Below, piece after piece: positions 5,301 through 63,904 of a stretch of 64,000 bases of DNA (position 1 is the stretch's first letter; each line of letters begins with the position of its first letter). A model generated the notes under the pieces. It did not search any database. It worked only from the letters and a program-made list of their open reading frames with translations, and was not told the origin of the DNA. This stretch comes from an uncultured Sterolibacteriaceae bacterium (GTDB taxonomy: Bacteria; Pseudomonadota; Gammaproteobacteria; Burkholderiales; Rhodocyclaceae). The DNA lies in the NCBI GenBank assembly GCA_937888595.1, contig CALARK010000007.1:23995-87994 (forward strand). Reading direction: 5' to 3'. A program made the translations under genes and the position numbers.

Positions 5301-7285
5301 ACAGCCTCGACGAGAAGATCGGCGCCCTCGAAACGCTGCTGCTCGACAAGCACAACTACAACTCGATGAACTGCGGCGACGGCGCCTGCCTCGGCTGCGG
5401 CGAGAAGACCGCGATCCACCTGTTCACGTCGACGGTGACCGCGCTGATGCAGCCGCGCGTCAAGGCCTTCGTGGCCAAGCTCGACGACCTGATCGGCCGG
5501 CTCGAACAGCACATGCGCGTGAAGCTGGCTTCCGTGGTCGACCTCACCGACACCAGTGCCGTGGTGCGCGCCGTCGAGGCGACCGGACAGCACGACCTGA
5601 CCCTGTCCAACCTTGCCTCCAAGCTCAACGAGAACAAGCCCTCGCAATTGCTCGACCCGGTCTGGGTGAAGAACACCGCCCAGCTGCTCGAGAAGCTCAA
5701 GGACCTCAAGTGGCGTTATGTCGAGGGGCCGACCCAGCGCGGCCGCGCCGAAATGGGCGTGGTCAACTCGACCGGCTGCACCTCGGTGTGGGGCTCGACC
5801 TACCCCTTCCACCCCTACCCCTTCCCCTGGACTTCGCACCTGTTCCAGGATTCGCCATCCGTCGCGATGGGCCTGTTCGAGGGCCACATGGCCAAGATGG
5901 CCGACGGTTTCAAGGCCGTGCGCATGGCCGAGAAGGAACTGGCCGGCGACTACCTGCCGGACCGCGACGACGATTTCTTCCGCCGCTTCACCTGGAGCAA
6001 GTTTTCCGAGGACGAATGGCTGCTGTGCCCGCCGGTCGTCTCGCTCGGCGGCGACGGCGCGATGTACGACATCGGCTTCCAGAACCTGTCGCGCGCACTG
6101 ATGTCCGGCATGCCGATCAAGGTGCTGGTGGTCGATACGCAGGTGTATTCCAACACCGGCGGCCAGGCCTGCACCTCGGGCTTCATCTCCCAGGTGTCCG
6201 ACATGGCGCCCTACGGCCAGGCGCAACGCGGCAAGCAGGAGACCCGCAAGGAGATCTCGCTGATCGGCATGGCCCACCGCACGTCCTACGTGATGCAGGG
6301 CACGATCGCCCATGTGAACCATTTGCTCGAAAGCTACATCGACGGCCTCAACAGCCGCCGCCCGGCGCTGTTCAACATCTACGCCGTCTGCCCGCCCGAG
6401 CACGGCGTCGGCGACGACAAGAGCGTCGACCAGAGCAAGCTGGCGGTCGAGTCGCGCGCCTACCCGCTGTTCCGCTTCGACCCGGATGCCGGCGTCACCT
6501 TCAGCGAGTGCACCAGCCTCGAAGGCAACCCGGCGCTGGACCAGGACTGGCCGACCTACACGCTCAAGTACCAGGAAGACGGCGCCGAGAAGTCGCTGAC
6601 CCTGCCGATGACCTTCGCCGATTTCGCGGCCACCGAGGCGCGCTTCCTCAAGCAGTTCAAGAAAGCGCCGCCGGAGACCTGGAACGAGAACATGGTGATG
6701 CTCGCCGATTTCATCGGTCTCGACGAGGACGAGCGCGAGGGCAAGTTCCCGTACATCTGGGCGGTCGACCAGAAGAACCGCCTGATGCGCCTGCTCGTCA
6801 GCGAGGACATGGTGCGCTCTTCCGAGGAGCGCCTGCACTTCTGGCAACAGCTGCGCGACATCGCCGGCCTGAACGCCCAGCCGGCCGACGCCGCCGAGGT
6901 GGCCGAACGCGTGCGCGCCGACCTGCTGGCGAAGATCTCGGCCACGCTGGGCCTGTCGGGTAGTGATGCGGGCACGGCCGCCGTCCCGCCGGCGCCGACT
7001 ATTGCGGGTGCGGCCACGAGCGCCAATGACGGCGACTACGAGCCGGTGTGGATCGAGAGTCCCGAGTGCACCGCCTGCGACGAGTGCATCAACCTGGCGC
7101 CGAAGACCTTCGCCTACAACGACCAGAAGCTGGCGATCGTCACCGACCCGAAGGGCGCGAAGTTCGCCGACATCGTCAAGGCGGCCGAGAAGTGCACGGC
7201 CGGCTGCATCCATCCGGGGACGCCGTGGAACATGGCCGAGCCGGGTATCGAGAAGTTGATGGCACGGGCGGCAAAATTTAATTAA
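2378..7285 (+). CDS. Pyruvate:ferredoxin (flavodoxin) oxidoreductase family protein, unusually long (1635 aa), with an extra C-terminal ferredoxin-like module
   Basis: ATG 2378 preceded by AACCAGGAG. Has YPITPSTQMGEYW (domain I), GGWGAITTGKNLA (domain III) and Fe-S motifs CTACGNCYTECP and CKACALCVTVCE. TPP region GGDGAMYDIGFQNL...DTQVYSNTGGQ is present, and the C-terminus carries CTACDEC...C. Confidence 0.9.
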   Translation: MLMKLFQSKSEAEKTQVKYPGIRDAVDGNTAVIHVEREASDAAGAYPITPSTQMGEYWAEEVAKGHLNISEKPLIFIEPESEHAAAGVTAGMAMTGLRATNFSSAQGVAFMHESLYGAVGKRLPYILNMGCRAITKASLNVHCSHDDYHCVDDTGFIQVMAKSATEAADLNLIGRKIAELSLTPAIIGQDGFLTTHLIESALLPERELVAEYVGKPDDLIDTPTPAQEMLYGPKRRRVPAIWDVDVPLVSGTVQNQDAYMQATAGQRPYFFDHIEEIADACMAEYTGLTGREYHRVSGYKMEDADYVIVGMGSMIVQAECVADYLRETRKLKVGVVNITMFRPFPGDLLGKLLAGRKGVAVLERTDQPLAEDLPLMREVRATLVKCIENGLAPDDDRPYPGYAAFASGEMPRLYSGCYGLGSRDLQPEGLIAAVENMLPDGAKRKFYYLSIDFARDPLNPKDEVHQQDLQEKYPQIGAMGIRGSENPNLLPKGAITVRMHSVGGWGAITTGKNLAMTLFELLGWDIKANPKYGSEKKGQPTTYYLSAAPEPIRINCEYTYVDVVLSPDPNVFGHSNPLSGLKKGGYFIIQSNLGDETWASFPLWAQKFIVDNDIHVFYIDAFQVAREEAGSPELQLRMQGIAFQGAFFAASPTMKNAGLTENALFTAIEAQLQAKFGNKGARVVQDNLRVVKRGYTELTEITDKQVGVTRKQLVKRDVGLPIMLKQLPASDGKVADIHRFWEQTGNFYLTGKGSDNLVDPFIGTSLMPAATGVFRDMTGIRFEHPVWIAENCTACGNCYTECPDSAIPGLVSSVADVFNTIINRIETSGTPTRFLRRAARTVEKKLRGLIGGDGAAVRPLIDEAIAATVAEAPEEDREKMAAEFKQFTAQMGDFAFGTTKPFWSLKEKKAKGSGGLFSITINPYTCKACALCVTVCEDDALKMVTQTDESVQKLRDDWSFWLDLPTTPKEYSRIDSLDEKIGALETLLLDKHNYNSMNCGDGACLGCGEKTAIHLFTSTVTALMQPRVKAFVAKLDDLIGRLEQHMRVKLASVVDLTDTSAVVRAVEATGQHDLTLSNLASKLNENKPSQLLDPVWVKNTAQLLEKLKDLKWRYVEGPTQRGRAEMGVVNSTGCTSVWGSTYPFHPYPFPWTSHLFQDSPSVAMGLFEGHMAKMADGFKAVRMAEKELAGDYLPDRDDDFFRRFTWSKFSEDEWLLCPPVVSLGGDGAMYDIGFQNLSRALMSGMPIKVLVVDTQVYSNTGGQACTSGFISQVSDMAPYGQAQRGKQETRKEISLIGMAHRTSYVMQGTIAHVNHLLESYIDGLNSRRPALFNIYAVCPPEHGVGDDKSVDQSKLAVESRAYPLFRFDPDAGVTFSECTSLEGNPALDQDWPTYTLKYQEDGAEKSLTLPMTFADFAATEARFLKQFKKAPPETWNENMVMLADFIGLDEDEREGKFPYIWAVDQKNRLMRLLVSEDMVRSSEERLHFWQQLRDIAGLNAQPADAAEVAERVRADLLAKISATLGLSGSDAGTAAVPPAPTIAGAATSANDGDYEPVWIESPECTACDECINLAPKTFAYNDQKLAIVTDPKGAKFADIVKAAEKCTAGCIHPGTPWNMAEPGIEKLMARAAKFN
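6980..7003 (-). repeat. 24-nt repeat copy b (inside PFOR CDS)
   Basis: Reverse complement AATAGTCGGCGCCGGCGGGACGGC, 1 mismatch. Read as AVPPAPTI. Confidence 0.85.
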
Positions 7286-7293
7286 GCGCGCAG

Positions 7294-9871: not shown

Positions 9872-10561
9872 ATGAGCCAAGCCACCGACGCCCTTACCGT
9901 CAGCACGCCCACCGTGGGGATGATCCGCACGCTCGGCCTGGTCGCGGCCCTGTGCGGGCTGATCATCGTCAGCGCCTACCAGGGCACCTACGATGCGGTG
10001 CAGGAAAACAAGCGCATCGCAGTCGAGCGCGCCGTGTTCAAGGTGATCCCTGTGGCGACCTCGATCGTCGAGTACCTCGCCCCGGGCAGCGGTGCGCCGC
10101 AGAAAGTCGGCACCGGCGGGACGGCACCGGCCGGCTCGATCAAGTTCTACGCGGGCTACGACAAGGATGGCCACCTCGCCGGGATCGCCGCCGAGGGGGC
10201 CGCGAAAGGCTATGCCGACACGGTGCGCATCCTGTTCGCCTGGGATCCCGCACAGGCGACGATCACCGGCTTCGGCGTCGTCTCGTCGCGCGAGACGCCG
10301 GGCATCGGCGACAAGATCGTCGTCGACAAGGACTTCCTCGCCAACTTCCCGCTCGCTGCGCCGCTGTCCGACGACCGCATGGTGCTCGCGCACGAAATCC
10401 GCACGGTGAAGCACGGGACCAAGACCCAGCCCTGGGAAATCGACGCGATCGCCGGTGCGACCATCACCTCGCGCGCCGTCGGCAAGGCGATCAACGAGGC
10501 CGCGCAGGCGCTGGTGCCGCGGCTGGTCCCCCACCTCGATGCCCTGAAGGAAAAATCATGA
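9872..10561 (+). CDS. rnfG: Rnf complex subunit G
   Basis: 229 aa with an N-terminal anchor helix and FMN-bind motif AIAGATITSRAV. Contains one 24-nt repeat copy (KVGTGGTA). Confidence 0.85.
   Translation: MSQATDALTVSTPTVGMIRTLGLVAALCGLIIVSAYQGTYDAVQENKRIAVERAVFKVIPVATSIVEYLAPGSGAPQKVGTGGTAPAGSIKFYAGYDKDGHLAGIAAEGAAKGYADTVRILFAWDPAQATITGFGVVSSRETPGIGDKIVVDKDFLANFPLAAPLSDDRMVLAHEIRTVKHGTKTQPWEIDAIAGATITSRAVGKAINEAAQALVPRLVPHLDALKEKS
10102..10125 (+). repeat. 24-nt repeat copy c (inside rnfG)
   Basis: GAAAGTCGGCACCGGCGGGACGGC, 2 mismatches. Read as KVGTGGTA. Confidence 0.8.
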
Positions 10562-14544: not shown

Positions 14545-15214
14545 GCTGGGCTCCCCAGAGGATCTTGTGCAGTTGCAACTGAAAGTGCACCGGGAGCCGG
14601 TCGGCGAGAATCCACTCGGCGAGCTGTGCCGGCGGCAGTCGATCCCACACCGGCGAGAACAACACCGGGCAGATTTCCGTCAGCGGCCGTCCTGCCGGCG
14701 CCGACTTTTCGTGCCGCCCCGCGAGGATTTCCTTCGCCCAGTCGTAGTCGGCGCGCGAAGCGAGCACGAACTTGAGTTCGTCGGTCGGCCGCAGGCAGTC
14801 GAGGTTCTCCCAGCGGTTCTTTCCCGCCTCGCCGGAATCCGGTGCTTTGAGGTCGACGATGCGCGCGACGCGCGGATCGACGGAACCAATGTCGAGCGCG
14901 CCCGAGGTTTCGAGGGAGACCGAGTAGCCGGCGTCGCACAGCGAGGTCAGCAGTGCCAGGCAGTTCGGCTGGGCGAGCGGCTCGCCGCCGGTGACGCACA
15001 CCGTGGAGCAGGCATGGGAGGCGACTTGCGCGCGGATCGCGTCGAGCGTCATCGTTTCCCCGCCGCTGAACGCATAGGCGGTATCGCACCAACGACAGCG
15101 CAGCGGGCAGCCGGTCAGCCGCACGAAGACGGTCGGCAGGCCGGCGCGCGTCGACTCTCCCTGCAGGGAATGGAAAATTTCCGCGACGCGCAGGGTCGGG
15201 GCGCTGCCCGTCAT
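14534..15214 (-). CDS. queE: 7-carboxy-7-deazaguanine synthase QueE (radical SAM)
   Basis: Start at ATG 15214 ([21 protein letters not shown]...). Radical-SAM motif [10 protein letters not shown]. Contains one repeat copy (KSAPAGRP). Confidence 0.85.
14686..14709 (-). repeat. 24-nt repeat copy e (inside queE)
   Basis: Reverse complement AAAAGTCGGCGCCGGCAGGACGGC, 1 mismatch. Read as KSAPAGRP. Confidence 0.85.
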
Positions 15215-17884: not shown

Positions 17885-18643
17885 TCAATCTTCCCGCGGA
17901 CGGAAGCGCAGTTCCAGCGTGCGGCTGAAAAGCTCGCTCTGGGGCGGTTTCGGCAGCGGGCTCGACTTGCGGATGGCACGCTCGGTGGCGTCGTCGTAGG
18001 CGGCATGGCCGGACGACTTGAGCAGCCGCACGTTCAACACTTCCCCGGAAGGCAACTGGGTGACCTCGAAGACCGCTTCCGGGTTACCCTTGATGTCGGA
18101 CGGCAGGATGATGTTGCCGCGTACCTTGCCGCGGATGCGCGCCATGTAGTCGGCCATCGCACTCGCCTTGAGGGCGCCCGCCTGCTGGGCTTTCAAGGCA
18201 TCGAGCTCGCGCGCGGCCGCCTCGGCAGCCTTGCGCTGCTGTAATTGCTCGGCTTCGCGGCGGAGTTCCTCCTTGAACGGGTCCGGGGCCGGCTTCGGCG
18301 GTTCCGGCTTGGGTTCGGGCTTTTTGGGCGGGGGCTTCGGCTTTTCCTTCTGCGCGATGTCCGGCTTGGGCGGCGTGGGGACCGGCTTGGGTGGTTCCGG
18401 TTTCGGCTCGGGTTTCAGTTCCGGTTTGGGCTCGGGCTTGGGCTCGGGTTTGGGTGCCGGGGCAGAAGTCGGCGCCGGCGGGACGGCACGCACCAGCTCT
18501 ACCTGAACGGCCGATTCCTGCTGCGTCTGCCAGCGGATGCCATAGACCAGCAACACGACCAGCAGCACGTGCATCAGCACGGCCAGTGCGAAGGAGATGC
18601 GCTTGCCCGGGGCGGGGCGCGGCTTGGCGGGGGCGTCCGTCAT
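17885..18643 (-). CDS. tolA: Cell envelope integrity protein TolA
   Basis: 252 aa with an N-terminal anchor, a PKPEPKPEP linker, a charged helix and a TolA C-terminal domain. Contains one repeat copy (AVPPAPTS). Confidence 0.85.
   Translation of the reverse strand: MTDAPAKPRPAPGKRISFALAVLMHVLLVVLLVYGIRWQTQQESAVQVELVRAVPPAPTSAPAPKPEPKPEPKPELKPEPKPEPPKPVPTPPKPDIAQKEKPKPPPKKPEPKPEPPKPAPDPFKEELRREAEQLQQRKAAEAAARELDALKAQQAGALKASAMADYMARIRGKVRGNIILPSDIKGNPEAVFEVTQLPSGEVLNVRLLKSSGHAAYDDATERAIRKSSPLPKPPQSELFSRTLELRFRPRED
18464..18487 (+). repeat. 24-nt repeat copy r (inside tolA, antisense to the gene)
   Basis: AGAAGTCGGCGCCGGCGGGACGGC, 1 mismatch. Read as AVPPAPTS. Confidence 0.85.
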
Positions 18644-22849: not shown

Positions 22850-23452
22850 TCAGTTTTTCGAGAGCAGCTTCAGCGCCTGGCGGATGCCCCCGGCGACATC
22901 GGCGTCGGCCGGCAGCGCCTTGATCGCCCCCAGCGCCTCGCGCTCGCTGTAGCCGAGGGCCAGCAAGGCATTGAGGATGTCGGTCATCGCGTCCGCAGCC
23001 GGAGCGGCTGCCGTCCCGCCGGCGCCGACTTTTGCTACCGCAGTAGCGGCGACGGGCAGCTTGCCCTTCAGTTCGAGCAGCAGCCGCTCGGCGGTCTTCT
23101 TGCCGATGCCGGGGATTTTCACCAGCCGGCCGGTCTCCTGCAATGCGACCGCCTGCGCCAGTTCGCCGACCGACAGGCCCGACAGCACCGCCAGCGCCAT
23201 GCGCGCGCCGATGCCCGAGATCTTCAGCAGCTGGCGGAACAGGGCGCGCTCGGCCTCGGTGAGGAAGCCGAACAGCAGGTGGGCATCCTCGCGCACGACG
23301 AGATGGGTGACGAGCGCAACCTTTTCGTTGATGTTCGGCAGGTTGTAGAAGGTGCTCATCGGCACGTCGATCTCGTAGCCGACGCCGCCGACGTCGACGA
23401 GGATTTGCGGCGGGTTTTTCTCCAGCAGGGTACCGGCGATGCGACCGATCAT
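22850..23452 (-). CDS. ruvA: Holliday junction DNA-binding protein RuvA
   Basis: 200 aa. [35 protein letters not shown], HhH motifs ISGIG / [12 protein letters not shown]. One repeat copy (KVGAGGTA) in the domain II-III linker. Confidence 0.95.
23010..23033 (-). repeat. 24-nt repeat copy f (inside ruvA)
   Basis: The reverse complement matches the consensus perfectly. Read as KVGAGGTA. Confidence 0.9.
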
Positions 23453-28360: not shown

Positions 28361-29893
28361 ATGAGCCTCGATCCGCTGCCCGTCGCCCGTCACCAGGGGG
28401 GCGACCTCGCCCTCCTGCCTGCGCTTGCCAACCGCCACGGGCTGATCACCGGTGCGACCGGCACGGGCAAGACCGTCAGCCTGCAAGTGCTGACCGAACG
28501 CTTCTCGGCCATCGGCGTGCCGGTGTTCCTGGCCGACGTGAAGGGCGACCTGTCGGGCCTCGGCGCGGCGGGCAAGGCCTCGGACAAGCTGCAGAAGCGC
28601 CTCGACCTGCTCGGCGTGACCGACTGGCAGCCGCGCGCCAACCCCGTGGTGTTCTGGGATGTCTTCGGCACCGCCGGCCACCCCGTGCGGGCGACCATCT
28701 CGGACATGGGCCCGCTGCTGCTGTCCCGCCTGCTGGCCCTCAACGACACGCAGGAAGGCGTGCTGCAGATCGTCTTCCGCGTTGCCGACGATGCCGGCCT
28801 GCTGCTGCTCGACCTCAAGGACCTGCGCACAATGGTGCAGCACGTCGGCGACAACGCCGCGCAATTCAAGACGCAATACGGCAACATCTCGGCCGCCAGC
28901 ATCGGCGCCATCCAGCGCGGCCTGCTGGCCCTGGAGGGCCAGGGCGGCGACCGGTTCTTCGGCGAGCCGATGCTCGACATCGCCGACCTGATGCAGACGC
29001 AGGGTGGCAAGGGCGTCGTCAATATCCTCGCCGCCGACCAGTTGATGAATTCGCCCAAGCTCTACGCCACCTTCCTGCTGTGGCTGCTGGCGGAACTGTT
29101 CGAGCAGCTGCCCGAGGTTGGCGATCTGGAGAAGCCGAAGCTCGTCTTCTTCTTCGACGAGGCGCACCTGCTGTTCGACGAAGCGCCCGCGGCGCTGGTC
29201 GACAAGGTCGAGCAGGTCGTGCGGCTGATCCGTTCCAAGGGCGTCGGTGTCTATTTCGTGACGCAGAATCCGCTCGACGTGCCCGACAAGGTGCTCGGCC
29301 AGCTCGGCAACCGCGTGCAGCACGCGCTGCGCGCCTTCACGCCGCGCGACCAGAAGGCCGTCAAGGCGGCGGCCGAAACGATGCGTGCCAACCCGGCCTT
29401 CGACGCGGCGGCGGCGATCACCGAACTGGGCGTCGGCGAGGCGCTGGTGTCCTTCCTCGACGAAAAGGGCCGTCCGCACATCGTCGAGCGCGCCTTCGTG
29501 CTGCCGCCGGCCTCGCGCCTCGGCCCGCTGACGCCGGAAGAGCGCGAGGCCGCGATCCGCGCCTCGGACATCTACGGCCATTACGAGAAGACCGTGGATC
29601 GGGAGTCGGCCTACGAGAAGCTGGCCGGCCGCGTACCGCAGGAAGGGGCGCCGCAAAAAGTCGGCGCCGGCGGGACGGCCCCGGCACCCGCCGCCTCTTC
29701 CCCATCGGGCGATGCAGAAGCCGAAGGCGGCGGCAAGATCAACGAGATCCTCTTCGGCCGCACCGGCCCGCGCGGCGGGCAGTACGACGGGCTGGTCCAG
29801 ACCATGACCAAGACGGTGGTGCGCACCATCGGGTCGCAGGTCGGGCGCCAGATCGTGCGCGGCCTGCTCGGTTCGCTGCTCGGGCGCCGCTAG
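28361..29893 (+). CDS. HerA-like ATPase, DUF853 (YjgR family)
   Basis: 510 aa. [22 protein letters not shown] Walker A and [10 protein letters not shown] Walker B. One repeat copy (KVGAGGTA) in the Ala/Pro-rich C-terminal linker. Confidence 0.85.
29656..29679 (+). repeat. 24-nt repeat copy h (inside the DUF853 ATPase CDS)
   Basis: Perfect consensus. Read as KVGAGGTA. Confidence 0.9.
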
Positions 29894-38784: not shown

Positions 38785-39622
38785 GGCGGGCATGGAGGAA
38801 GAATTCGTGGTTGCCGTCGGTGCCGGTGATCGGGCTGTCGAACCAGCCGGCGACGACGAGATGGTGTTGCGTGCAACAGGCCGCGAGCTTGTCGCGAACC
38901 ATGGGATACAAGCGCGTGTCGGTGACGATGCCGCCCTTGCCCACATGTTCCGGGCCGACCTCGAATTGGGGCTTGACGAGCAGCAGCAGGTCGCCGAGGC
39001 GGGTCAGCAGCGGCGGCAGTTGCGGCAGGATCAGCGTCAGCGAGATGAAGCTCGTGTCGGCGACGATCAGGTCGAACTGCCGTCCCGCCAGCACCGACTT
39101 TTGCAGGTTGCGCGCGTTGAGGCCCTCGTGCGGCTCGACGCGTGGATCGGCCGCGATGGCGGGATGCAGCTGGCCATGGCCGACGTCGATGCCGACCACT
39201 TTCGCCGCACCGTGCTGCAGCAGGCAATCGGTGAATCCACCGGTGCTCTGGCCGATGTCCAGGCAGTCGCGACCGCGAGGGTCGATGCCGGCATGCGCGA
39301 GTGCGCCGGCCAGCTTGAGCCCGCCGCGCGAGACGTACTCGGCGGACTGCGACGGCTCGACGCGCAAGTCGGCATCGGCCGGCAGGAGGTGGGACGGCTT
39401 GTCGATCGCCGTCCTGTCGGCGCCGACTTTTACGCGGCCGGCGTCGATCAGCCGCTGGGCCGCGGTGCGCGAGGGCGCGAGGCCGCGCTGGACGAGCAGC
39501 GCGTCCGCGCGCACGCCGCCGGCGTGGGCGGACGGCTTGCCGCCATACACCTGCGCCGCGGCGCGCACGGCCACCTTCGATTTCGGGCGGGCCGTGCGGG
39601 CATGAAACGAGTTCATGCTCAT
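38771..39622 (-). CDS. tlyA: TlyA family rRNA 2'-O-methyltransferase
   Basis: Start at MSMNSFHART (ATG 39622). S4 domain (RADALLVQRGLAPSRTAAQRLIDAGRV) and FtsJ-like SAM motif CLDIGQSTGGFTDCLL. One near-consensus repeat copy. Confidence 0.85.
   Translation of the reverse strand: MSMNSFHARTARPKSKVAVRAAAQVYGGKPSAHAGGVRADALLVQRGLAPSRTAAQRLIDAGRVKVGADRTAIDKPSHLLPADADLRVEPSQSAEYVSRGGLKLAGALAHAGIDPRGRDCLDIGQSTGGFTDCLLQHGAAKVVGIDVGHGQLHPAIAADPRVEPHEGLNARNLQKSVLAGRQFDLIVADTSFISLTLILPQLPPLLTRLGDLLLLVKPQFEVGPEHVGKGGIVTDTRLYPMVRDKLAACCTQHHLVVAGWFDSPITGTDGNHEFFLHARHEPA
39408..39431 (-). repeat. 24-nt repeat copy i (inside tlyA S4 domain)
   Basis: Reverse complement AAAAGTCGGCGCCGACAGGACGGC, 2 mismatches. 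Read as KVGADRTA. Confidence 0.7.
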
Positions 39623-44481: not shown

Positions 44482-45341
44482 CCCGGTTCGCACTGGCTGT
44501 CATGTGGCTGCTGCACTGGCTGCCGCTGCCGGCGCTGGCGGCCTGCGGGCGGCTGTTCGGCCGGCTGCTGTTCCGCTTCGGCCACGAGCGCCGCCGCGTC
44601 GCCCTGACCAATCTGGGCCTCTGCTTCCCCCAGATGGGCGAAGCCGAAAAGTCGGCGCTGGCGCGACGGCACTTCGAGGCCTTCGGCCGCAGCTTCCTCG
44701 AGCGCGGGCTGCTGTGGTGGGCCCCGGCTGCGCGCATCCGCCGCCTCGTGACGATCGCGGGACTGGAACGCATTCCCGCCGACCGGCCGGTGATCCTGCT
44801 GGTGCCGCATTTCGTCGGCCTCGACATGGGCTGGACGCGGCTGACGCTCGAGCGCGACATGGTCAGCATCTACGCCAATCAGAAGAACCTGCTGTTCAAT
44901 GCCGCCCTCTATCAGGGCCGCCTGCGTTTCGGGCATTCCGAGCTGCTTTCGCGTCAGGAAGGCACGCGCAAGGCGATCCGGGCGATGAAGGCCGGCCGGC
45001 CGTTCTACTACCTGCCGGACATGGATTACGGCGAGCGCGACACCATCTTCGTGCCCTTCTTCGGCGTCCCGGCGGCGACCATCACGGGCCTGTCGCGCCT
45101 CGCGCGCATAACCGGCGCGGCGGTCGTGCCGGCCATCGCGCGCATGACCGATTCCGGATATGTCGTCGAGATCGGCGAACCGTGGGTGGATTACCCGGGC
45201 CAGGGTGAACATGGCATCGAGGACGATACGCGGCGCATGAATGCCTTCATCGAGCAGGAAGTGCTGAAAATGCCTGACCAGTACTTCTGGCTGCACAAGC
45301 GCTTCAAGACGCGGCCGCCGGGCGAACAAAGGCTGTATTGA
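44478..45341 (+). CDS. Lipid A biosynthesis acyltransferase (LpxL/HtrB family), paralog 2
   Basis: ATG 44478 overlaps the upstream stop. NLGLCFPQMGEAEKSALARRHFEAFG, HFVGLD motif and C-terminal QYFWLHKRFKTRP. Confidence 0.8.
   Translation: MTRFALAVMWLLHWLPLPALAACGRLFGRLLFRFGHERRRVALTNLGLCFPQMGEAEKSALARRHFEAFGRSFLERGLLWWAPAARIRRLVTIAGLERIPADRPVILLVPHFVGLDMGWTRLTLERDMVSIYANQKNLLFNAALYQGRLRFGHSELLSRQEGTRKAIRAMKAGRPFYYLPDMDYGERDTIFVPFFGVPAATITGLSRLARITGAAVVPAIARMTDSGYVVEIGEPWVDYPGQGEHGIEDDTRRMNAFIEQEVLKMPDQYFWLHKRFKTRPPGEQRLY
44647..44670 (+). repeat. 24-nt repeat copy j (inside lpxL paralog 2)
   Basis: AAAAGTCGGCGCTGGCGCGACGGC, 2 mismatches. Read as KSALARRH. Confidence 0.65.
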
Positions 45342-51690: not shown

Positions 51691-51714
51691 TCCGTCCCGC
51701 CGGGACCGACTTTA
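51691..51714 (-). repeat. 24-nt repeat copy m (directly upstream of the rlmI ATG)
   Basis: Reverse complement TAAAGTCGGTCCCGGCGGGACGGA, 4 mismatches, the same TCC variant as copy l. Ends 1 nt before the rlmI start codon. Confidence 0.7.
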
Positions 51715-53292: not shown

Positions 53293-53316
53293 GCCGTCCC
53301 GCCGGCGCCGACTTTT
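53293..53316 (-). repeat. 24-nt repeat copy n (intergenic, convergent stops)
   Basis: The reverse complement matches the consensus perfectly. It occupies 24 of the 26 nt between the stops at 53290 and 53317. Confidence 0.9.
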
Positions 53317-57552: not shown

Positions 57553-57578
57553 GTTGCAAATGCAATCGTGTTGCAAAA
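57553..57578. promoter_or_regulatory. Candidate Zur operator in the divergent ZIP / zur promoter region
   Basis: GTTGCAAATGCAATCGTGTTGCAAAA: two copies of the palindromic hexamer TTGCAA 17 nt apart, plus a central TGCAAT. Position and symmetry only; not matched to a known Zur box. Confidence 0.35.
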
Positions 57579-57605
57579 CCTGCGGCCGTGTGCTTTCATT
57601 GGCGC

Positions 57606-58016: not shown

Positions 58017-58285
58017 AACGCCTGCTGCTGCTCTGCGTCGCGCTGGTCCTGGCACAGGCCGCTCTTGCCGGGCACGGCATCGAGCACGCCTTTCAAGACC
58101 ACGCAGAGTCCTGCGTCGAGTGCCTGTCCTTGCCGGGGATGCAGGCCCTGCCGGCGCTTCCGCCGCACCTGCCCCCGCCCGCCACGGCGCCCACGCCCGC
58201 CGTCGTCGCCGTCCCGCCGGCGCCGACTTTTGCGCTGCATCCGGCGTTCCGGAGCCGCGCTCCACCCGCGATCCAAAGCTGCTGA
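58013..58285 (+). CDS. Small exported His/Cys protein (DUF2946-like)
   Basis: The GTG start overlaps the zur stop (GTGA). Signal peptide VKRLLLLCVALVLAQAALA, then HGIEHAFQDHAESCVECLSLPG. The C-terminal half contains one repeat copy. Confidence 0.4.
   Translation: MKRLLLLCVALVLAQAALAGHGIEHAFQDHAESCVECLSLPGMQALPALPPHLPPPATAPTPAVVAVPPAPTFALHPAFRSRAPPAIQSC
58208..58231 (-). repeat. 24-nt repeat copy o (inside the small DUF2946-like ORF)
   Basis: The reverse complement matches the consensus perfectly. Read as AVPPAPTF. Confidence 0.9.
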
Positions 58286-58318: not shown

Positions 58319-59713
58319 ATGAGCCACGTTGTGTCGTGGATGCTGGCGGCTGCCGGCGTCCTGGCCTCGCTTCCCGCCAGCGCGGACGAGGACCTGAAAG
58401 CCTTGCGCACCGAAATCGCGCAAATGAAGCACGCCTACGAGCAGCGCATCGCCGCGCTGGAGCAGCGCCTGGCCCTCGCCGCGCAGGCCGGGCATGTCGC
58501 CGACGGACCGGCCGACGGGCATGCGGAGCATTTCCACGCGGCCGATGAGGGCAGCGAGCCCGAAATGGGGCTGGTCCTGCAGGGGCGCTTCAGAAAGATG
58601 AAGGAGATGGAGGCGGAGGCGCGTGCCGTGGCGGGTTACTGGCCGGCCGGCCACGACCACGATGGAAACGAGCGTGGTTTCTCGCTGCAGCATGCCGAAC
58701 TGAGGCTGGCGGCGAATGTCGGTGCGAAGTTTCGTGGCGTGGCGCGCTTCGCCGTGGGCGAGGCGGGCGACGTGGAGGTGGAAGAGGCGAGTTTCACCAC
58801 GCTGGGCCTCGGCCACGGATGGATGGTGCGCGGCGGCCGCTTCGCTTCCGGCGTCGGCTACCAGAATGCCCGGCATCCGCACGAATGGGATTTCGCCGAT
58901 GCGAGCCTGATGCAGGTAGCCCTGTTCGGCGCGGAGGGCTACCGCCAGGATGGACTGCAACTGCAGTGGGCGGCCCCGACCGCGTCCTTGTTGGCGTTCG
59001 GCGCCGAACTCGGCCGCGGGGCGACTTTCCCGGGCACCGATCGCAACAGGAACGGCGCCGGCGCCGTCGCACTCTTCGCCCGGGTGGGCGGTCCGCGTGG
59101 CGATGGGTCTGCCTGGCAGGCCGGCCTGTCCTATCTCGGCACGCGCGCCGAGGGTCGCGAGGCGCACTTCGAGGACACCGACCCCCTCGGCCCCAACGAG
59201 GTGTCCGGCGCATTCTCCGGACGCAGCCGCACATTGATCGCCGATTTCGTCTGGCAGTGGGCCCCGCAAGGCGACGGGCAAACGGGCGGCGTCAGGTTCC
59301 AGGCGGAGGTGTTCAGGCGCAGCGAAAACGGCACGCTCGGCTGCACTTCCGATGTCGCCACCTCGCCCTGCCTGGGCGGTGTGTCACTCGGCGCGCTTGA
59401 TGCCCGCCAGACCGGCGGCTACTGGCAGGCGGTGTACCAGTTCCTGCCGCAGTGGCGGGTGGGCTATCGACATGACTGGCTGTCGCCGGGCCGCAAGTCC
59501 TACGATCCGGCCGTCGTGTTCGCCGCGCTCGATCGGGACGGCAGTTATTTCAGCGGCCACAAGCCGCGACGCGACAGCGCCATGGTTGATTGGGGCGACT
59601 CGGAGTCCTCCCGGCTGCGCCTGCAGTTCGCCCGCGACCGCTCGATGCCGGGCGTGACGGACCATCAGTGGACGCTGCAGTACATCATGCATCTCGGGTC
59701 GCACGCGCATTAG
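58319..59713 (+). CDS. Putative outer-membrane beta-barrel/porin-like protein with a His-rich N-terminal region
   Basis: 464 aa. Signal peptide, a coiled-coil segment ([27 protein letters not shown]), a [21 protein letters not shown] region, then alternating beta-strand-like sequence. Confidence 0.4.
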
Positions 59714-59727
59714 CGGAATGCCGGCAG

Positions 59728-59751
59728 GCCGTCCTGCCGGCACCGACTTTT
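59728..59751 (-). repeat. 24-nt repeat copy p (intergenic, porin-like gene/hslV)
   Basis: Reverse complement AAAAGTCGGTGCCGGCAGGACGGC, 2 mismatches. Its left part pairs with upstream GCCGGCAGG to form a 9-bp hairpin. Confidence 0.8.
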
Positions 59752-59793: not shown

Positions 59794-60330
59794 ATGGAGC
59801 AGTATCACGGCACGACCATCCTTTCCGTGCGGCGCGGCAACGTCGTCGCGCTCGGCGGCGACGGCCAGGTGACGCTCGGCAACATCGTCGTCAAGGCCAG
59901 CGCGCGCAAGATCCGCCGCCTGTACAACGAGAAGATCCTCGCCGGGTTCGCCGGTGGCACGGCCGACGCCTTCACCCTGTTCGAGCGCTTCGAGGCGAAG
60001 CTGGAGAAACACCAGGGCAACCTGCTGCGCTCGGCCGTCGAACTGGCGAAGGACTGGCGCACCGACCGCATGCTGCGCCGGCTTGAGGCGATGCTGGCCG
60101 TCGCCGACCGCGACAACTCGCTGATCATCACCGGCAATGGCGACGTGCTGGAACCGGAACTGGGCATCGTCGCGATCGGCAGCGGGGGCGCCTATGCGCA
60201 ATCCGCCGCCCGTGCGCTTCTGGAAAATACGGATCTGGTGCCTGCCGTGATCGTGAAGAAGTCGCTGGAGATCGCCGGCGATCTGTGCATCTACACCAAC
60301 CAGAACCACCTGATCGAGGTGCTGGAGTGA
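59794..60330 (+). CDS. hslV: ATP-dependent protease subunit HslV
   Basis: 178 aa. [29 protein letters not shown], with the N-terminal catalytic Thr after processing. Confidence 0.95.
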
Positions 60331-60349: not shown

Positions 60350-62455
60350 CTAAGCGCCGGCCGCGCCGGCACGCGCCTGCACATGGTGCGCGAAGGTGGC
60401 CGCATCCATCGGCCGGCCGAGCAGATAGCCTTGCACCTCGTTGCAGCCGAGCCTCTGCAGGGCGTGCAGCTGGTCGTTGATTTCCACCCCTTCGGCGACG
60501 ACCGACAGCCCGAGCGTATGCGCCATGGCGACGACGGCGGCGGCGATGGCGGCATCGTCCTCGTTGTGGTGAAGCTCGTTGATGAAGGAGCGGTCGATCT
60601 TCACTTCGTCGATGGGGAAACGGCGCAGGTAGGACAGGCTCGAATAGCCGGTGCCGAAGTCGTCGAGCGAAAGCGTGATGCCGAGCTGCTTGAGGGCACG
60701 CAGTGTGAGCAGTGCGCTATCCACATCGTGCATCACCATGCTCTCGGTCATTTCGAAGGTGAACGCCGACGGGTCGGCGCCGGTGGCGACGAGATCGTAT
60801 TGCACGAGGTCGGGCAGGTCTTCCTGGCGGAATTGCCGTGCCGACAGGTTGATCGAGATTTTCAGCGGCGGCAGGCCGGCGTCGCGCCAGGCGGCCTGCT
60901 GGCGGAAGGCTTCCTGCATGACCCAGCTGCCGATCTGCAGGATCAGGCCGGTTTCTTCGGCAAGCGGGATGAACTCGCCCGGATGGGTGAGGCCGATGCC
61001 CGGCTGCTCCCAGCGCACCAGCGCCTCGGCGCCGACGATCCGGCCGGACTTGACGTCGACCTTGGGCTGGTAGTGCAGGATGAATTCCTCGCGGTCCACC
61101 GCACGGCGCAGGGCGGTCTCCATGTCGACGCGGTCGATGGCCTGGTGGGCCATGTCGGGGCTGTAGCTGCGCACGCTGTTGCGTCCGAGCGTCTTGACGC
61201 GGTACATCGCCATGTCGGCGTTCCGCAGCAGGATCTCGCCGTGTTCGCCGTCGCGCGGGTAAAGGGCCAGGCCGATGCTGGCGCCGACGTACAGCTCGCG
61301 CTGGTCGATGACGACCGGCGCCGCCATCGCGGCCACCATCTTCTGCGCCACCTGCTCGGCATCCTCGGCACGCGCGAGGTCGGTCAGCACGACGACGAAT
61401 TCGTCGCCACCGAGGCGCGCCACGGTGTCCGTCTCGCGCACGCACTGCCGCAGCCGCCCCGCGATTTCCTTGAGCAGGATGTCGCCGGTCGAATGGCCGT
61501 AGGCATCGTTGATGTGCTTGAAATGGTCGAGGTCGAGCAGCGCGAGGGCCACCTGGCGGCGCGAGCGGCGCGCCATGGCGATGGCCTGGGCGATCCGGTC
61601 GTTGAGCAGACTGCGGTTGGCGAGCCCGGTCAGCGTGTCGTGGGAGGCCTGGTGCTCCAGCACTTCCTGATAGTGCATGCGGTCGCTGACGTCGTTGATG
61701 ATGCTGACGAAGTGCGTGATGTCGTCGCGCGTCGCATCGCTGATCGGGGCGATGAACAGTTCGTTCCAGAACATCGTGCCGTCCTTGCGGTAGTTGCGCA
61801 GGATGGCGTGGCCGGGCCGGCGTTCGCGCAGTGCGGCGCGGATTTCGTCGAGACCGATCTGGGAAAGATCGTCGCGCACCAGGAAGCGGCCGATGCGTCC
61901 GACCGCCTCCTGCGCACTGTAGCCGGTGATGCGCTCGAAGGCCGGGTTGACATAGAGGATCGAGTGATCGTCGGCATCGGCCCGGCTGATCATGACCCCG
62001 TTGTTGGTCGAGGCCAGCGCCTGCTCGCGCAGCAGCAGTGCCGACTCGATCTCGCGCAGGTGGGTAATGTCCTCCTTGATGGCGATCAGCCGCGTGATCT
62101 CGCCCGCGGCATTGCGCAGCGGCGAGATGAACTGGCGTTCCCAGTAGAGGTCGCCGTTCCTGCGCCGGTTGCGGATCGTGCCCTGCCATGATTCGCCGGC
62201 GCTGATGCGCGCCCACATTTCACGATACTGGCGATCGGAGGTTTCGCCCGACTGCCAGAGCGCGGGGGTCGCACCCTCGATGTCGCTGAATGCATAGCCG
62301 GTCATCGCGGTGAAAGCCGGGTTGCAATAGACGATCCGGCCCCCCGGGTCGGTGATCACGACCGCGTGGGGATTCTGCTCGATGGCATGGAAGAGCAGCG
62401 CATGGCGCGTCTCCAAGTCCTCCGGGGCGATGGATTCAGGCAGGCTGGCGATCAT
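60350..62455 (-). CDS. PAS-PAS-GGDEF-EAL c-di-GMP signalling protein
   Basis: 701 aa. Two PAS domains (NPHAVVITDPGGRIVYCNPAF; NNGVMISRADADDHSILYVNPAF), a GGDEF domain (RLGGDEFVV) and an EAL domain (EALVRWEQP...DDFGTGYSSL). Confidence 0.9.
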   Translation of the reverse strand: MIASLPESIAPEDLETRHALLFHAIEQNPHAVVITDPGGRIVYCNPAFTAMTGYAFSDIEGATPALWQSGETSDRQYREMWARISAGESWQGTIRNRRRNGDLYWERQFISPLRNAAGEITRLIAIKEDITHLREIESALLLREQALASTNNGVMISRADADDHSILYVNPAFERITGYSAQEAVGRIGRFLVRDDLSQIGLDEIRAALRERRPGHAILRNYRKDGTMFWNELFIAPISDATRDDITHFVSIINDVSDRMHYQEVLEHQASHDTLTGLANRSLLNDRIAQAIAMARRSRRQVALALLDLDHFKHINDAYGHSTGDILLKEIAGRLRQCVRETDTVARLGGDEFVVVLTDLARAEDAEQVAQKMVAAMAAPVVIDQRELYVGASIGLALYPRDGEHGEILLRNADMAMYRVKTLGRNSVRSYSPDMAHQAIDRVDMETALRRAVDREEFILHYQPKVDVKSGRIVGAEALVRWEQPGIGLTHPGEFIPLAEETGLILQIGSWVMQEAFRQQAAWRDAGLPPLKISINLSARQFRQEDLPDLVQYDLVATGADPSAFTFEMTESMVMHDVDSALLTLRALKQLGITLSLDDFGTGYSSLSYLRRFPIDEVKIDRSFINELHHNEDDAAIAAAVVAMAHTLGLSVVAEGVEINDQLHALQRLGCNEVQGYLLGRPMDAATFAHHVQARAGAAGA

Positions 62456-62557
62456 CTTAAATATAACTTTCTATAGAAATAATAGTACCACCCCGGGGCG
62501 CGTACCGCATCCGGCCGGGTGTGGAATAATCCTCGCTCTTCAATGCCCTTTCCCGCC

Positions 62558-63904
62558 ATGACCCAGATGACCCCCGCCGAGATCGTCTCGGAACTCGACA
62601 AGCACATCGTCGGCCAGGCGCGCGCCAAGCGTGCCGTAGCCATTGCCTTGCGCAACCGCTGGCGCCGTGCGCAGGTGGCCGAGCCGCTGCGTACCGAGAT
62701 CACGCCGAAGAACATACTGATGATCGGCCCGACCGGCGTCGGCAAGACCGAGATCGCGCGCCGGCTGGCGCGGCTGGCCAACGCGCCCTTCATCAAGGTC
62801 GAGGCGACCAAGTTCACCGAGGTCGGCTACGTCGGCCGTGACGTCGACACCATCATTCGCGACCTCGCCGAGACGGCGATCAAGAACGCCCGCGAGCAGG
62901 CCATGAAGCAGGTGCGCGACCGCGCACTCGATGCCGCCGAGGACCGCGTGCTCGACGTGCTGCTGCCGCCGGCGAGGGCAACAATGGGGTTCGGAGAAGT
63001 CGGCGCCGGCGGGACGGCGACCGAGGAAACCGGGACGCGCCAGAAATTCCGCAAGAAGCTGCGCGAGGGCGAGCTCGACGACAAGGAGATCGATGTCGAG
63101 ATCGCCGCACCGGCCGCCAGCATGGAGATCCTCGCGCCGCCCGGCATGGAGGACCTGAGCCAGCAGCTGCAGGGCATGTTCCAGAACCTCGGCGGCGGCC
63201 GCAAGAAGTCGCGCCGCATGCGCATCGCCGACGCCCTGAAGGCGCTGGCCGACGAGGAAGCCGCACGCCTGATCAACGACGAGGAGGTGAAGGCGGCGGC
63301 GCTGAAGAACGTCGAGCAGAATGGCATCGTCTTCCTCGACGAGATGGACAAGATCGCCTCGCGCAGCGAGACGCAGGGCGCCGACGTGTCGCGCCAGGGC
63401 GTGCAGCGCGACCTGCTGCCGTTGGTCGAGGGCACGACGGTGTCGACCAAGTACGGCATGATCAAGACCGACCACATCCTGTTCATCGCCAGCGGTGCTT
63501 TCCATTTCGCCAAGCCGTCCGACCTGATTCCCGAATTGCAGGGCCGCTTCCCGATCCGCGTCGAACTCGACTCGCTGTCGGTCGACGATTTCGAGCGCAT
63601 CCTCACGCAGACCGATGCCTGCCTGACGCGACAGTACGAAGCGCTGCTGGATACCGAGGGCGTGAAGCTGGATTTCACTGCCGACGGCATCCGGCGTCTG
63701 GCGCAGATCGCCTTCGAGGTGAACGAGAAGACCGAGAATATCGGCGCCCGCCGCCTCTATACGGTGATGGAGCGCCTGCTCGAGGAGATTTCCTATACGG
63801 CCGGCACGGCGGCGGCGACTGCCCTGAGCGTCGATGCCGCCTACGTCGATGCGCGCCTGGCCGAGCTGGCGCGGCACGAGGACCTGTCCCGCTACGTGCT
63901 GTAA
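62558..63904 (+). CDS. hslU: ATP-dependent protease ATPase subunit HslU
   Basis: Start at [20 protein letters not shown] (ATG 62558). [15 protein letters not shown] Walker A and [10 protein letters not shown]. One repeat copy (EVGAGGTA) in the I-domain. Confidence 0.95.
62994..63017 (+). repeat. 24-nt repeat copy q (inside hslU I-domain)
   Basis: AGAAGTCGGCGCCGGCGGGACGGC, 1 mismatch. Read as EVGAGGTA. Confidence 0.85.

Follow-up and report, generated by a model that had tools for sequence, protein, structure and literature searches.

To our knowledge, DNA uptake sequences of the DUS/USS type are known only from the Neisseriaceae and the Pasteurellaceae. The DUS of the Neisseriaceae is ATGCCGTCTGAA, together with its dialects, and its receptor is the minor pilin ComP; the USS of the Pasteurellaceae consists of a 9-nt core, AAGTGCGGT, and phased AT-rich flanks, about 29 nt in total. 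Other words and elements recur in bacterial genomes at high copy number. Rickettsia palindromic elements (RPEs) are palindromic insertions of 100-150 nt that are missing from orthologues as clean indels, REPs are imperfect palindromes that are strictly extragenic and often clustered, and HIP1 of the cyanobacteria (GCGATCGC), whose driver is still debated, is a palindrome of 8 nt linked to cognate methyltransferases. In published accounts the DUS is described as a 10-12-nt GCCGTCTGAA-type sequence with a conserved CTG core, and the USS core as AAGTGCGGT or ACAAGCGGT, containing GCGG (PMC12616744). The share of DUS/USS copies that is coding has been put at 34.5-65%, with values of 65% and 49% for the USS in two Pasteurellaceae (PMC2817400).

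Here we describe a 24-nt word, RAAAGTCGGCGCYGGCRGGACGGC, that occurs 19 times in 64 kb (the window, that is, the whole stretch of DNA analysed, which is 67% GC), about once per 3.4 kb, both inside genes, essential ones among them, and between genes, with 8 copies on the plus strand and 11 on the minus strand. We found no earlier description of this word in the literature. Searching the window with a 23-mer and at most 3 mismatches, we would expect 0.00 copies on the basis of 100 dinucleotide-preserving shuffles. Measured against the 24-mer consensus, 4 copies have no mismatch, 6 have one, 8 have two and 1 has four; because no copy in the window has 3, 5 or 6 mismatches, the repeat family is sharply bounded. 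The word carries about 35 bits of information, with the blocks AGTCGG and GACGG invariant and the variable positions in the centre, and its copies are spaced more evenly than random (CV 0.62 versus 0.95, P=0.017). No conservation of the flanks was found around the copies in the window, indicating that there is neither a longer element nor a target duplication. Reading frames were set by GC3 periodicity together with a gene caller (64 genes, 95% coding), and gene identities were taken from Pfam. The copies are as follows (labels beginning with L denote sequences compared with the window).

1088..1111, minus strand: intergenic, 1 mismatch, in a divergent spacer 43 nt upstream of the start of an ABC-ATPase gene (421-1044, minus strand)
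6980..7003, minus strand: coding, in a PFOR-like gene (2378-7285, plus strand), reverse AVPPAPTI, in the linker from the TPP domain to the C-terminal ferredoxin domain
10102..10125, plus strand: coding, in rnfG (9872-10561, plus strand), KVGTGGTA, N-terminal to the FMN_bind domain; copy retained in L069
12327..12350, plus strand: intergenic, beginning right after the TGA of ORF 12045-12326, with a terminator hairpin next; L069 version retained with 3 substitutions and a 1-nt indel
14686..14709, minus strand: coding, in queE (14534-15214, minus strand), KSAPAGRP; copy in L069 identical
18464..18487, plus strand: coding, in tolA (17885-18643, minus strand), reverse AVPPAPTS, in a Pro/Ala-rich region
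23010..23033, minus strand: coding, in ruvA (22850-23452, minus strand), KVGAGGTA, in the domain II-III linker; copy retained in Methyloversatilis L108
26026..26049, plus strand: intergenic, in the 45 nt that separate the start of an EamA transporter gene from the end of yebC, both on the minus strand
29656..29679, plus strand: coding, in a HerA_C/DUF853 ATPase gene (28361-29893, plus strand), KVGAGGTA; retained in L107 and L108 despite linker indels and 57-60% identity around it
39079..39102, minus strand: coding, in the FtsJ domain of tlyA (38771-39622, minus strand), KSVLAGRQ, in a native-length segment; retained in L106, L108 and L109, the peptide KSALAGR being near-universal among 120 homologues
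39408..39431, minus strand: coding, in the S4 domain of tlyA, KVGADRTA; site polymorphic across the clade, with alleles in relatives that lack the motif, are 2 aa (6 nt) shorter and have a partial-match proto-site
44647..44670, plus strand: coding, in lpxL (44478-45341, plus strand), KSALARRH; retained in L106, L107 and L109, with a variable R/K codon
45364..45387, plus strand: intergenic, between lpxL and dapF; degenerate versions (6 mismatches) at the orthologous sites of L106 and L109
47812..47835, minus strand: intergenic, occupying the larger part of the 42 nt that separate xerC from a SulP-family transporter gene
51691..51714, minus strand: intergenic, degenerate (4 mismatches), between divergent degP-like and rlmI-like genes
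53293..53316, minus strand: intergenic, perfect, in the spacer of a convergent gene pair, of which it fills 24 nt
58208..58231, minus strand: coding, perfect, in a small ORF (57995-58285, plus strand), reverse AVPPAPTF; 23 of 24 nt retained in L078, with flanks about 50% identical
59728..59751, minus strand: intergenic, 17 nt past the stop of gene 58331-59713 and upstream of hslV, forming a hairpin with flanking sequence that is followed by a T-run
62995..63018, plus strand: coding, in hslU (62543-63904, plus strand), EVGAGGTA, in the I-domain loop

Eleven of the 19 copies thus lie in frame inside genes. An initial sequence-only reading had listed ten; the in-frame location held, and the count rose by the second tlyA copy at 39079. 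The same reading had assigned the coding copies to three frames, which GC3 periodicity and the gene calls bear out: KVGAGGTA-type peptides are found in rnfG, ruvA, the HerA_C/DUF853 gene, the S4 domain of tlyA and hslU, AVPPAPT-type peptides (reverse) in the PFOR-like gene, tolA and the small ORF at 58208, and KSAPAGR-type peptides in queE and lpxL as well as, in the form KSVLAGRQ, at the second tlyA site. Most of these copies are in Ala/Gly/Pro-rich loops. Direct reading likewise agrees that the consensus, which is exactly 8 codons long, has no stop codon in any of its six frames. The label "DUF2946-like" given to the small ORF found no support in Pfam; the ORF is nevertheless conserved, and the gaps upstream of the motif relative to L078 are multiples of three.

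The word extends well past this window. An exact 22-mer is present in at least 100 stretches, nearly all of them from Sulfuritalea, Methyloversatilis or Rhodocyclaceae metagenome-assembled genomes (MAGs), and the word is common to a clade of the Rhodocyclaceae that comprises Sulfuritalea, Methyloversatilis, Sulfuricystis and uncultured relatives, the source of the window among them. At position 13, C is present in 16 of the 19 window copies, T is present in all copies of L106-L109 (Sulfuricystis, a Methyloversatilis MAG and two others), and the closest relative, MAG BF4_139, has mainly C by our own reading of the matches. The mismatches in tlyA and lpxL that had been taken for changes away from Pro/Gly are present, but the change from C13 to T is the normal dialect of the sister genera. 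Viral contigs hold the motif at a density about 3-fold below that of host DNA; in genuine phage genomes, of 47-58% GC, several full copies with sharp edges are present.

In a sample of 882 kb from related genomes we counted 234 copies (109 on the plus and 125 on the minus strand), 126 of which are coding, 97 intergenic and 11 across a gene end. The resulting coding share, 54%, falls inside the published range for DUS/USS (PMC2817400). Among the 126 coding copies the frames KVGAGGTA (45), AVPPAPTF (45), KSAPAGR (17) and RPAGADF (14) are used, and the two Arg-rich frames are avoided (3 + 2 = 5 copies). The median distance from intergenic copies in the sample to the upstream stop is 20 nt, and neither orientation is preferred (29:24); convergent spacers are favoured over divergent ones (29:6), divergent promoter regions being avoided. 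The places in which the word is tolerated are flexible loops, read in Gly/Ala/Pro/Thr frames, and the bases between a stop codon and a terminator. The coding copies are no special class but the in-gene fraction of a genome-wide 24-nt word.

The word can be compared with the systems described above. Like the DUS, it is hyper-abundant on both strands, genic but denser between genes and near gene 3' ends, split into lineage dialects inside one family of Betaproteobacteria, conserved at orthologous positions, of substitution origin and less dense in mobile DNA. It is not the DUS itself: the consensus reads GCCGTCCCG, lacks the CTG core, and shares only the hexamer GCCGTC, in the reverse motif. Moreover, it has 24 nt and about 35 bits where the DUS has 10-12 nt, it lacks the terminator-forming inverted pairs typical of Neisseria DUS, and its hosts are free-living sediment or water bacteria. 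With the USS it has in common an extended motif in which an A-run adjoins a GC-rich core, a coding share of about one half, a strong frame bias to well-tolerated peptides and preferred codons, a location in poorly conserved protein segments, a build-up of copies after DNA enters the lineage, and more even spacing than random. Its sequence, however, differs from the AAGTGCGGT/ACAAGCGGT core, it belongs to another bacterial class, all 24 of its positions are information-rich rather than a 9-nt core with weak flanks, and its uptake bias is putative. HIP1 is similar in being a hyper-abundant short word, genic and intergenic, whose conservation spans a clade and whose maintenance acts at the DNA level, but the present word is longer and asymmetric. 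REP/BIME sequences (RAYT transposases) are likewise short, GC-rich, high in copy number and frequent just downstream of genes; the word is non-palindromic and singly dispersed, and its weak self-pairing (a 4-bp stem, -6.5 kcal/mol) and the more than half of its copies that are coding do not fit a REP/RAYT element.

How copies arise and persist was assessed against solved homologues and against orthologous DNA from Methyloversatilis, Sulfuricystis and other Rhodocyclaceae MAGs. Orthologous copies are retained while the flanks drop to 48-80% identity. Nucleotide identity among orthologues is 91% in the motif versus 76% in the flanks, and at identical residues codon identity is 85% versus 65% (P=5e-5). 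The word is therefore maintained at the DNA level, and copies once formed persist at orthologous positions over long evolutionary times. This bears on the idea that the copies reflect GC-rich codons and Gly/Ala/Pro-rich linkers, or selection on the peptides themselves. The loops that house most coding copies and the GC content of the genome speak for such an origin, but the shuffles yield no copies, three frames are used to read one and the same 24 nt, which also occur in non-coding DNA, synonymous positions are conserved, and the motif peptide is absent from the solved homologues of TlyA, HslU, RuvA and the lipid A acyltransferase, which excludes protein-level conservation, a check that the sequence-only reading had called for. 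We consider this explanation refuted and give it next to no weight. A tiny mobile element of 24 nt (8 codons) landing in frame, like RPEs or MITEs, is also very improbable. As with RPEs, in-frame copies sit inside conserved housekeeping genes that are not inactivated; the length of exactly 8 codons with every frame open, the sharp edges, clearest in AT-richer phage DNA, the spacers at 47812 and 53293 that the motif almost fills, and the RnfG and HslU loops, which exceed those of distant homologues, would all suit an insertion. Unlike RPEs, however, the word is non-palindromic and replaces native sequence without a matching indel. It has no terminal inverted repeats, target-site duplication or flank conservation, and several copies occupy segments of native length: the length difference from solved TlyA structures is 2 aa for the S4 copy and 0-1 aa for the FtsJ copy, no gap is needed to align the LpxL copy with a solved lipid A acyltransferase homologue, and the RuvA of PDB entry 7x7q has a linker that is 2 aa longer than the one here. 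The HslU loop is 5 aa longer, not 8, than in solved HslU (1g3i and 1g4a). Presence/absence cases, five in related genomes and one in phage contigs, are all of the substitution type or involve indels of 1-15 nt, and none is a clean 24-nt indel between filled and empty orthologous sites. Intermediate forms with 5-9 mismatches, proto-sites and decayed copies also occupy orthologous positions. Copies of the word arise via point substitutions and small indels wherever the sequence is tolerated, not by transposition. These alignments sustain the sequence-only reading where it preferred a USS/DUS-like build-up through substitution or conversion to the insertion of 8 codons, and its view that the tlyA S4 and lpxL segments have native length; of the insertions that it had left open for linker copies we found no case, though for RnfG and HslU, in loops of variable length, one is still conceivable.

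What maintains such a word may be a polar recombination or segregation signal, a site for a chromosomal protein, or DNA uptake. A signal of the Chi or KOPS type seems highly unlikely to us. The T13 dialect contains GCTGGCGG, one base off E. coli Chi, so that the central octamer is Chi-like, the word is about as frequent as Chi is in E. coli, and phages carry the word; yet within the motif it is the octamer region that is conserved least, known Chi sites have only a third of the 24 nt, and the copies in the 882 kb show no orientation bias relative to local GC skew (118:116), nor do those of the window (8:11), where cumulative GC skew climbs almost throughout. A possible, though rather doubtful, alternative is that the word is bound by an abundant, sequence-specific protein that has a chromosomal or "self-marking" function, for example in nucleoid organisation or in protection from a nuclease or defence system, each site being kept by ordinary selection and phages copying the word to pass as host DNA. 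The variable middle points to a bipartite site, and thereby possibly to a DNA-binding protein of another kind, and the length and information content of the word, its even spacing, the conservation of orthologous copies beyond what the protein requires and the several full copies in real phages of much lower GC all agree with such a role. For the phage copies, drive on prophages can provide an explanation, and selection for a "self" site recognised by the host fits as well or better. Against a protein site of this kind, placement tracks tolerance (loops, positions after stops, avoidance of Arg frames) rather than a positional logic, Chi/KOPS-like polarity is lacking, and sites are gained, lost and decayed between relatives, which fits a balance of drive and mutation better than site-by-site selection. 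We also know of no nucleoid or defence system with a 24-nt non-palindromic word in either orientation at this density.

The reading of the word as an uptake signal of the DUS/USS type, whose copies would be driven by biased uptake and homologous recombination, has in our estimation about an even chance of being correct. The genomic features match the signature of such sequences, and all the signatures in favour of uptake would also be compatible with selection for a chromosomal binding site of any kind that is independent of orientation. Under the uptake model, the word would be recognised by a putative receptor on the cell surface, probably a type IV pilus component; natural transformation would favour the uptake of word-bearing DNA, followed by homologous recombination; and better-matching alleles would enter the cell and recombine more often than others. 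In this way the word would spread by molecular drive up to the limit of coding constraint, as do the DUS of the Neisseriaceae and the USS of the Pasteurellaceae. Competence-related genes are present on motif-bearing contigs (a secretin and two prepilin-type proteins on L073, a ComM homologue on L072), evidence that is weak because such genes are widespread; ComEC, DprA and ComEA were not found in the 0.88 Mb of genome fragments sampled, and a literature search returned no report of natural competence in the clade. If the uptake reading is true, this clade of the Rhodocyclaceae may be a third bacterial group with uptake signals, beside the Neisseriaceae and the Pasteurellaceae.

The window (GC approximately 66–67%) contains a sharply defined 24-nt word with the consensus AAAAGTCGGCGCCGGCGGGACGGC. 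A search with a 23-mer allowing up to three mismatches recovered 19 copies, against 0.00 expected from 100 dinucleotide-preserving shuffles; relative to the full 24-mer four copies have no mismatch, six have one, eight have two and one has four, with no copy having three, five or six. Eight copies are on the plus strand and 11 on the minus strand, and they are spaced more evenly than random (CV 0.62 versus 0.95, P=0.017). When all of the window copies were aligned with 25-nt flanks, conservation ended exactly at the edges of the motif, indicating that the word is neither part of a longer element nor bordered by a target-site duplication. Positions 4–9 (AGTCGG) and 19–23 (GACGG) are invariant, positions 10–13 and 17 are variable, and the word carries approximately 35 bits of information against the GC-rich background. 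That the centre is the least conserved part suggests that the word may be bipartite.

Most of the six reading frames are open because the genome is GC-rich. True frames were set by GC3 periodicity and by a gene caller based on codon usage and trained on these data, which called 64 genes in the window (95% coding density) and reproduced the gene calls of public assemblies. Eleven of the 19 copies lie fully within genes and the remaining eight are intergenic, even though only approximately 5% of the window is non-coding. Pfam confirmed as hosts PFOR, RnfG (FMN_bind), QueE (radical SAM), TolA (TonB_2/TolA), RuvA, HerA_C (DUF853), TlyA (S4 and FtsJ), LpxL and HslU. The sequence-only reading had placed ten copies in frame within housekeeping genes in three frames; all ten are correct, and we add an eleventh that had been missed, a second copy in tlyA at 39079–39102 (KSVLAGRQ, in the FtsJ domain). 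The label 'DUF2946-like' given to the small ORF at 58208 finds no support in Pfam, but the ORF itself is conserved in a relative, where every alignment gap upstream of the motif has a length divisible by three.

The 11 coding copies and four of the eight intergenic copies in the window, by position, with the frame named by the peptide read
6980, PFOR, reverse AVPPAPTF frame
10102, rnfG, KVGAGGTA frame
12327, intergenic, starting right behind a stop codon
14686, queE, KSAPAGR frame
18464, tolA, reverse AVPPAPTF frame
23010, ruvA, KVGAGGTA frame
29656, herA_C, KVGAGGTA frame
39079, tlyA (FtsJ), KSAPAGR frame
39408, tlyA (S4), KVGAGGTA frame
44647, lpxL, KSAPAGR frame
45364, intergenic, starting right behind a stop codon
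47812, intergenic, nearly filling a short spacer
53293, intergenic, starting right behind a stop codon and nearly filling a short spacer
58208, small ORF, reverse AVPPAPTF frame
62995, hslU, KVGAGGTA frame

Several features of the window around these copies are recorded here in their own right.

Other features of the window
2378–7285 (+), PFOR-like gene whose product, at approximately 1635 aa, is of unusual length for PFOR; an additional 4Fe-4S ferredoxin domain (Fer4_13) at the C-terminus is joined to the core by the linker that holds the motif copy; an Rnf cluster lies downstream
12398–12556 (-), adjacent tRNA-Lys pair with CTT and TTT anticodons, just downstream of copy 12327 and its terminator hairpin
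29680–39078, longest motif-free stretch (9.4 kb), of slightly lower GC (0.625 at 32–36 kb), in which a module comprising a TonB-dependent receptor and an ABC_sub_bind protein is present twice (repeats 33429–33781 and 36424–36776, approximately 77% identical); the syntenic stretches of loci L107 and L108 are likewise motif-free
41120–41184 (-), SAH riboswitch (Rfam RF01057, 51.7 bits) upstream of ahcY (39646–41013, -), followed by tlyA and metF in the same direction
56210–58285, zinc-homeostasis cluster: ZIP transporter, ZrgA, DUF3299, MacB-type ABC system and Fur-family regulator (57648–58016), followed by the motif-bearing small ORF (signal peptide, His and Cys residues, no Pfam family)
59794–60330 (+), hslV, and 62543–63904 (+), hslU, split by a PAS-PAS-GGDEF-EAL gene at 60350–62455 (-) rather than forming the usual adjacent pair

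Comparison of the host proteins with solved structures revealed segments of native or nearly native length. Against TlyA of PDB 7s0s, the S4 copy ('RVKVGADRTAIDKPS') pairs with 'KVRI--DGLPAVKPA', a difference of 2 aa, and the FtsJ copy differs in length from solved TlyA by 0–1 aa. The LpxL copy aligns without gaps to an Acinetobacter acyltransferase, the RuvA linker is 2 aa shorter than that of PDB 7x7q, and the HslU I-domain loop is longer than those of 1g3i and 1g4a by 5 aa, not 8. Two alignments to solved structures are uninformative on insertion, as the loop that holds the RnfG copy varies in length and the QueE alignment stops short of the site. An all-against-all comparison of 100 loci yielded five cases of presence versus absence, all of them substitution-type or involving indels of at most 6 nt, and in phage contigs the counterpart of a full copy is an intermediate form, GAAGGCCAGCGCGGGCAGGACGGC, again differing by substitution or small indel. 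Between orthologues in host loci or phage contigs we found no clean 24-nt indel. Accumulation by substitution or conversion, which the sequence-only reading had favoured over insertion of eight codons, is thus the better account, and that reading of the copies was essentially right. The solved homologues of TlyA, HslU, RuvA and the lipid A acyltransferase lack the encoded peptides, which excludes conservation at the protein level.

Copies of the word are widespread among relatives. With one genome scanned per species, an exact 22-mer occurred in at least 100 stretches, nearly all from MAGs named Sulfuritalea, Methyloversatilis or Rhodocyclaceae; among the matches listed, 734 kb held 221 copies with up to five mismatches, and the edges of the logo were equally sharp. 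The closest relative, the MAG 'Rhodocyclaceae bacterium BF4_139' (approximately 92% nucleotide identity to the window), retains all three copies of the shared 8 kb, and a locus of approximately 78% identity (L078) keeps the small-ORF copy at 23/24 with flanks only approximately 50% identical. Starting from 120 TlyA homologues we fetched four syntenic loci, from Sulfuricystis multivorans (L106), a Rhodocyclaceae genome (L107), a Methyloversatilis MAG (L108) and a JGI metagenome contig (L109). The copies in the FtsJ part of tlyA, lpxL, herA_C and ruvA are retained wherever these loci align (except L107 at tlyA-FtsJ and L108 at lpxL), even where the surrounding linker is 57–60% identical and contains indels. 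The lpxL–dapF intergenic copy has degenerate orthologues, with six mismatches, in L106 and L109. The S4 copy of tlyA is absent from all four loci, in which the site is 6 nt shorter (e.g. GTCAGCCTCGCCGGCGAGCCG, a partial 'proto-site'), and the site varies, in several registers, among the 120 homologues. The peptide KSALAGR in the FtsJ domain is near-universal among the same homologues (68–100% identity), which suggests that the copy at 39079 may be very old.

Position 13 varies in the manner of a dialect, with C in 16 of the 19 window copies and T in every copy of L106–L109; by our own grouping of the scanned loci, BF4_139 is mainly C13, and Methyloversatilis and Sulfuritalea loci are T13-rich after the C13 copy demanded by the scan pattern is set aside. 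The change from C to T is synonymous in two of the frames used and replaces Pro with Leu in the third. We note three features of the sequence that are probably coincidental: NarI (GGCGCC) and NaeI (GCCGGC) sites overlap in the C13 form, and both are destroyed in the T13 dialect; the T13 dialect includes GCTGGCGG, one base off E. coli Chi (GCTGGTGG); and the reverse complement opens with GCCGTC, as does the Neisseria 10-mer DUS GCCGTCTGAA.

In 12 orthologous gene pairs retaining a copy, identical residues use the identical codon at 80 of 94 motif positions versus 612 of 942 flank positions (Fisher P=4.6e-5), and nucleotide identity is 91% in the motif versus 76% in the flanks (P about 1e-11), P values that are indicative only, as the pairs are phylogenetically non-independent and conditioned on motif retention (12 of 14 pairs). 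In lpxL the GGG codon of the motif is replaced by CGA, AGA or AAA (Arg/Lys) depending on lineage, indicating that protein constraint overrides the motif at that codon. We consider DNA-level maintenance of the motif, its origin by substitution and its clade-wide distribution highly probable.

Pooled host DNA (882 kb) contains 234 copies, of which 126 are coding, 97 intergenic and 11 overlap a gene end. The coding share of 54% falls within the 34.5–65% reported for uptake sequences of N. meningitidis, A. pleuropneumoniae and H. influenzae (PMC2817400). Coding copies are read as KVGAGGTA (45), AVPPAPTF (45), KSAPAGR (17) or RPAGADF (14), whereas the Arg-rich frames KSRRRRDG and PSRRRRL account for three and two. 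Intergenic copies occupy co-directional (53) and convergent (29) spacers and are rare in divergent ones (six); in co-directional spacers the median distance is 20 nt to the upstream stop and 80 nt to the next start. Their orientation is unbiased relative to the upstream gene (29 forward, 24 reverse), and orientation is independent of local GC skew (118:116). For copies 59728, 53293 and 47812, pairing with the adjoining sequence precedes a T-run. We rejected a role as terminator on account of the random orientation and the lack of inverted pairs, which are typical of the Neisseria DUS and never formed by this word. An RNA element was likewise rejected, there being no Rfam match at any copy and no orientation preference relative to the upstream gene; the only Rfam matches in the window are two tRNAs and the SAH riboswitch.

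The word also occurs in viral contigs, with an exact match in 75 IMG/VR stretches. Some of these contigs are genuine phages. Four of them, of 47–58% GC, carry two to four full copies of the T13 dialect with sharp edges, mostly at gene ends and in some cases directly upstream of a ribosome-binding site.

Copies in four phage contigs
L139, 1243–1266 and 1458–1481; encodes terminase, primase-helicase, RecT and SSB
L113, 7752 and 8639; encodes RecE and RecT
L112, 3884 and 5428
L114, 653, 5285, 6888 and 7647

Extra copies occur at approximately 1 per 20 kb in viral contigs versus 1 per 6.6 kb in host loci ascertained alike (1 per 3.4 kb in the window), and collections of cultured phages and plasmids yielded only chance partial matches. 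The sole place in which we saw the motif multiplied within a larger repeat is contig L123 (IMGVR_UViG_3300009945_000063, 629–2123), where a tandem 316-nt unit (4.7 copies, 91% identity) has one motif per unit.

The feature set to be explained is a hyper-abundant asymmetric word on both strands, with dialects across genera, in-place origin by substitution, orthologous retention, tolerated placement and no polarity. To our knowledge, the single established process that yields this whole set is sequence-biased DNA uptake followed by recombination, as for the DUS of Neisseriaceae and the USS of Pasteurellaceae. Our literature search found no match to the motif string and nothing on uptake sequences or competence in Rhodocyclaceae, Methyloversatilis or Sulfuritalea; the word is apparently undescribed so far and characteristic of an environmental Rhodocyclaceae clade, so the finding extends beyond the ten copies originally noticed. 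As one established process fits the feature set, and our search found neither motif nor competence reported for this clade, our best explanation is an uptake-signal-like sequence kept by molecular drive. Such drive acting on prophages, with copies accumulating after entry into the lineage, would account for both the phage copies and the lower viral density. Whether uptake bias is what maintains the word is, in our judgement, evenly balanced. Points of caution are the length of the word, two to three times that of the DUS or of the USS core, its poorly conserved centre, and the lack of the inverted pairs seen in Neisseria.

The principal alternative is that the word is a binding or 'self' site of a host protein that phages imitate. 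The full copies in phages of 47–58% GC fit this equally well, and the poorly conserved centre suggests a bipartite protein site; we regard it as rather unlikely. A polar signal of the Chi or KOPS kind could draw on the Chi-like octamer of the T13 dialect, but the copies show no strand bias with respect to GC skew and the Chi-like region is the least conserved, making such a signal very improbable. Equally improbable is a mobile insertion, given the lack of target duplications, conserved flanks and clean 24-nt indels in host loci and phage contigs. Convergence of protein or composition is the least credible of all, and these last three are refuted or nearly so.

Competence genes were sought by tblastn with E. 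coli ComEC, DprA, ComEA, HofQ, HofM and ComM in 0.88 Mb of host DNA, a sample too small to establish presence or absence; the only matches were a ComM homologue in L072 and a secretin in L073. The L073 secretin (JBGFRW010000015.1, 1086–5381), from a motif-bearing genome, has TPR and STN domains at its N-terminus and precedes two prepilin-type (N_methyl) proteins. Two motif copies lie inside the cluster, whose proteins may offer a way into the search for a receptor.

DNA uptake specificity is so far known from only two families, Neisseriaceae and Pasteurellaceae (PMC12616744). It is possible, if somewhat doubtful, that the word is a genuine uptake signal and that a clade of free-living Rhodocyclaceae of sediment and groundwater is a third lineage recognising its own DNA at the cell surface. 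The signal would then be the longest and most information-rich of its kind (24 nt, approximately 35 bits, apparently bipartite), with genus-level dialects, and would also be carried by the phages of the clade. Neisseriaceae and Pasteurellaceae are both animal-host-associated; a third system, evolved independently in environmental Betaproteobacteria, would mean that transformation favouring self DNA extends beyond mucosal pathogens. Such a system would offer a new receptor–signal pair to dissect, a 24-nt bipartite signal implying a mode of recognition unlike that of ComP, and adding the word to donor DNA could ease transformation of Methyloversatilis, Sulfuritalea and Sulfuricystis. The word is a specific marker for metagenome binning and host assignment, including phage–host linking, and its presence in phages bears on its function. 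Should something other than uptake be the driver, a 35-bit word at more than one copy per 4 kb across genera, in essential genes and in phages, still implies an unrecognised genome-wide DNA–protein interaction.
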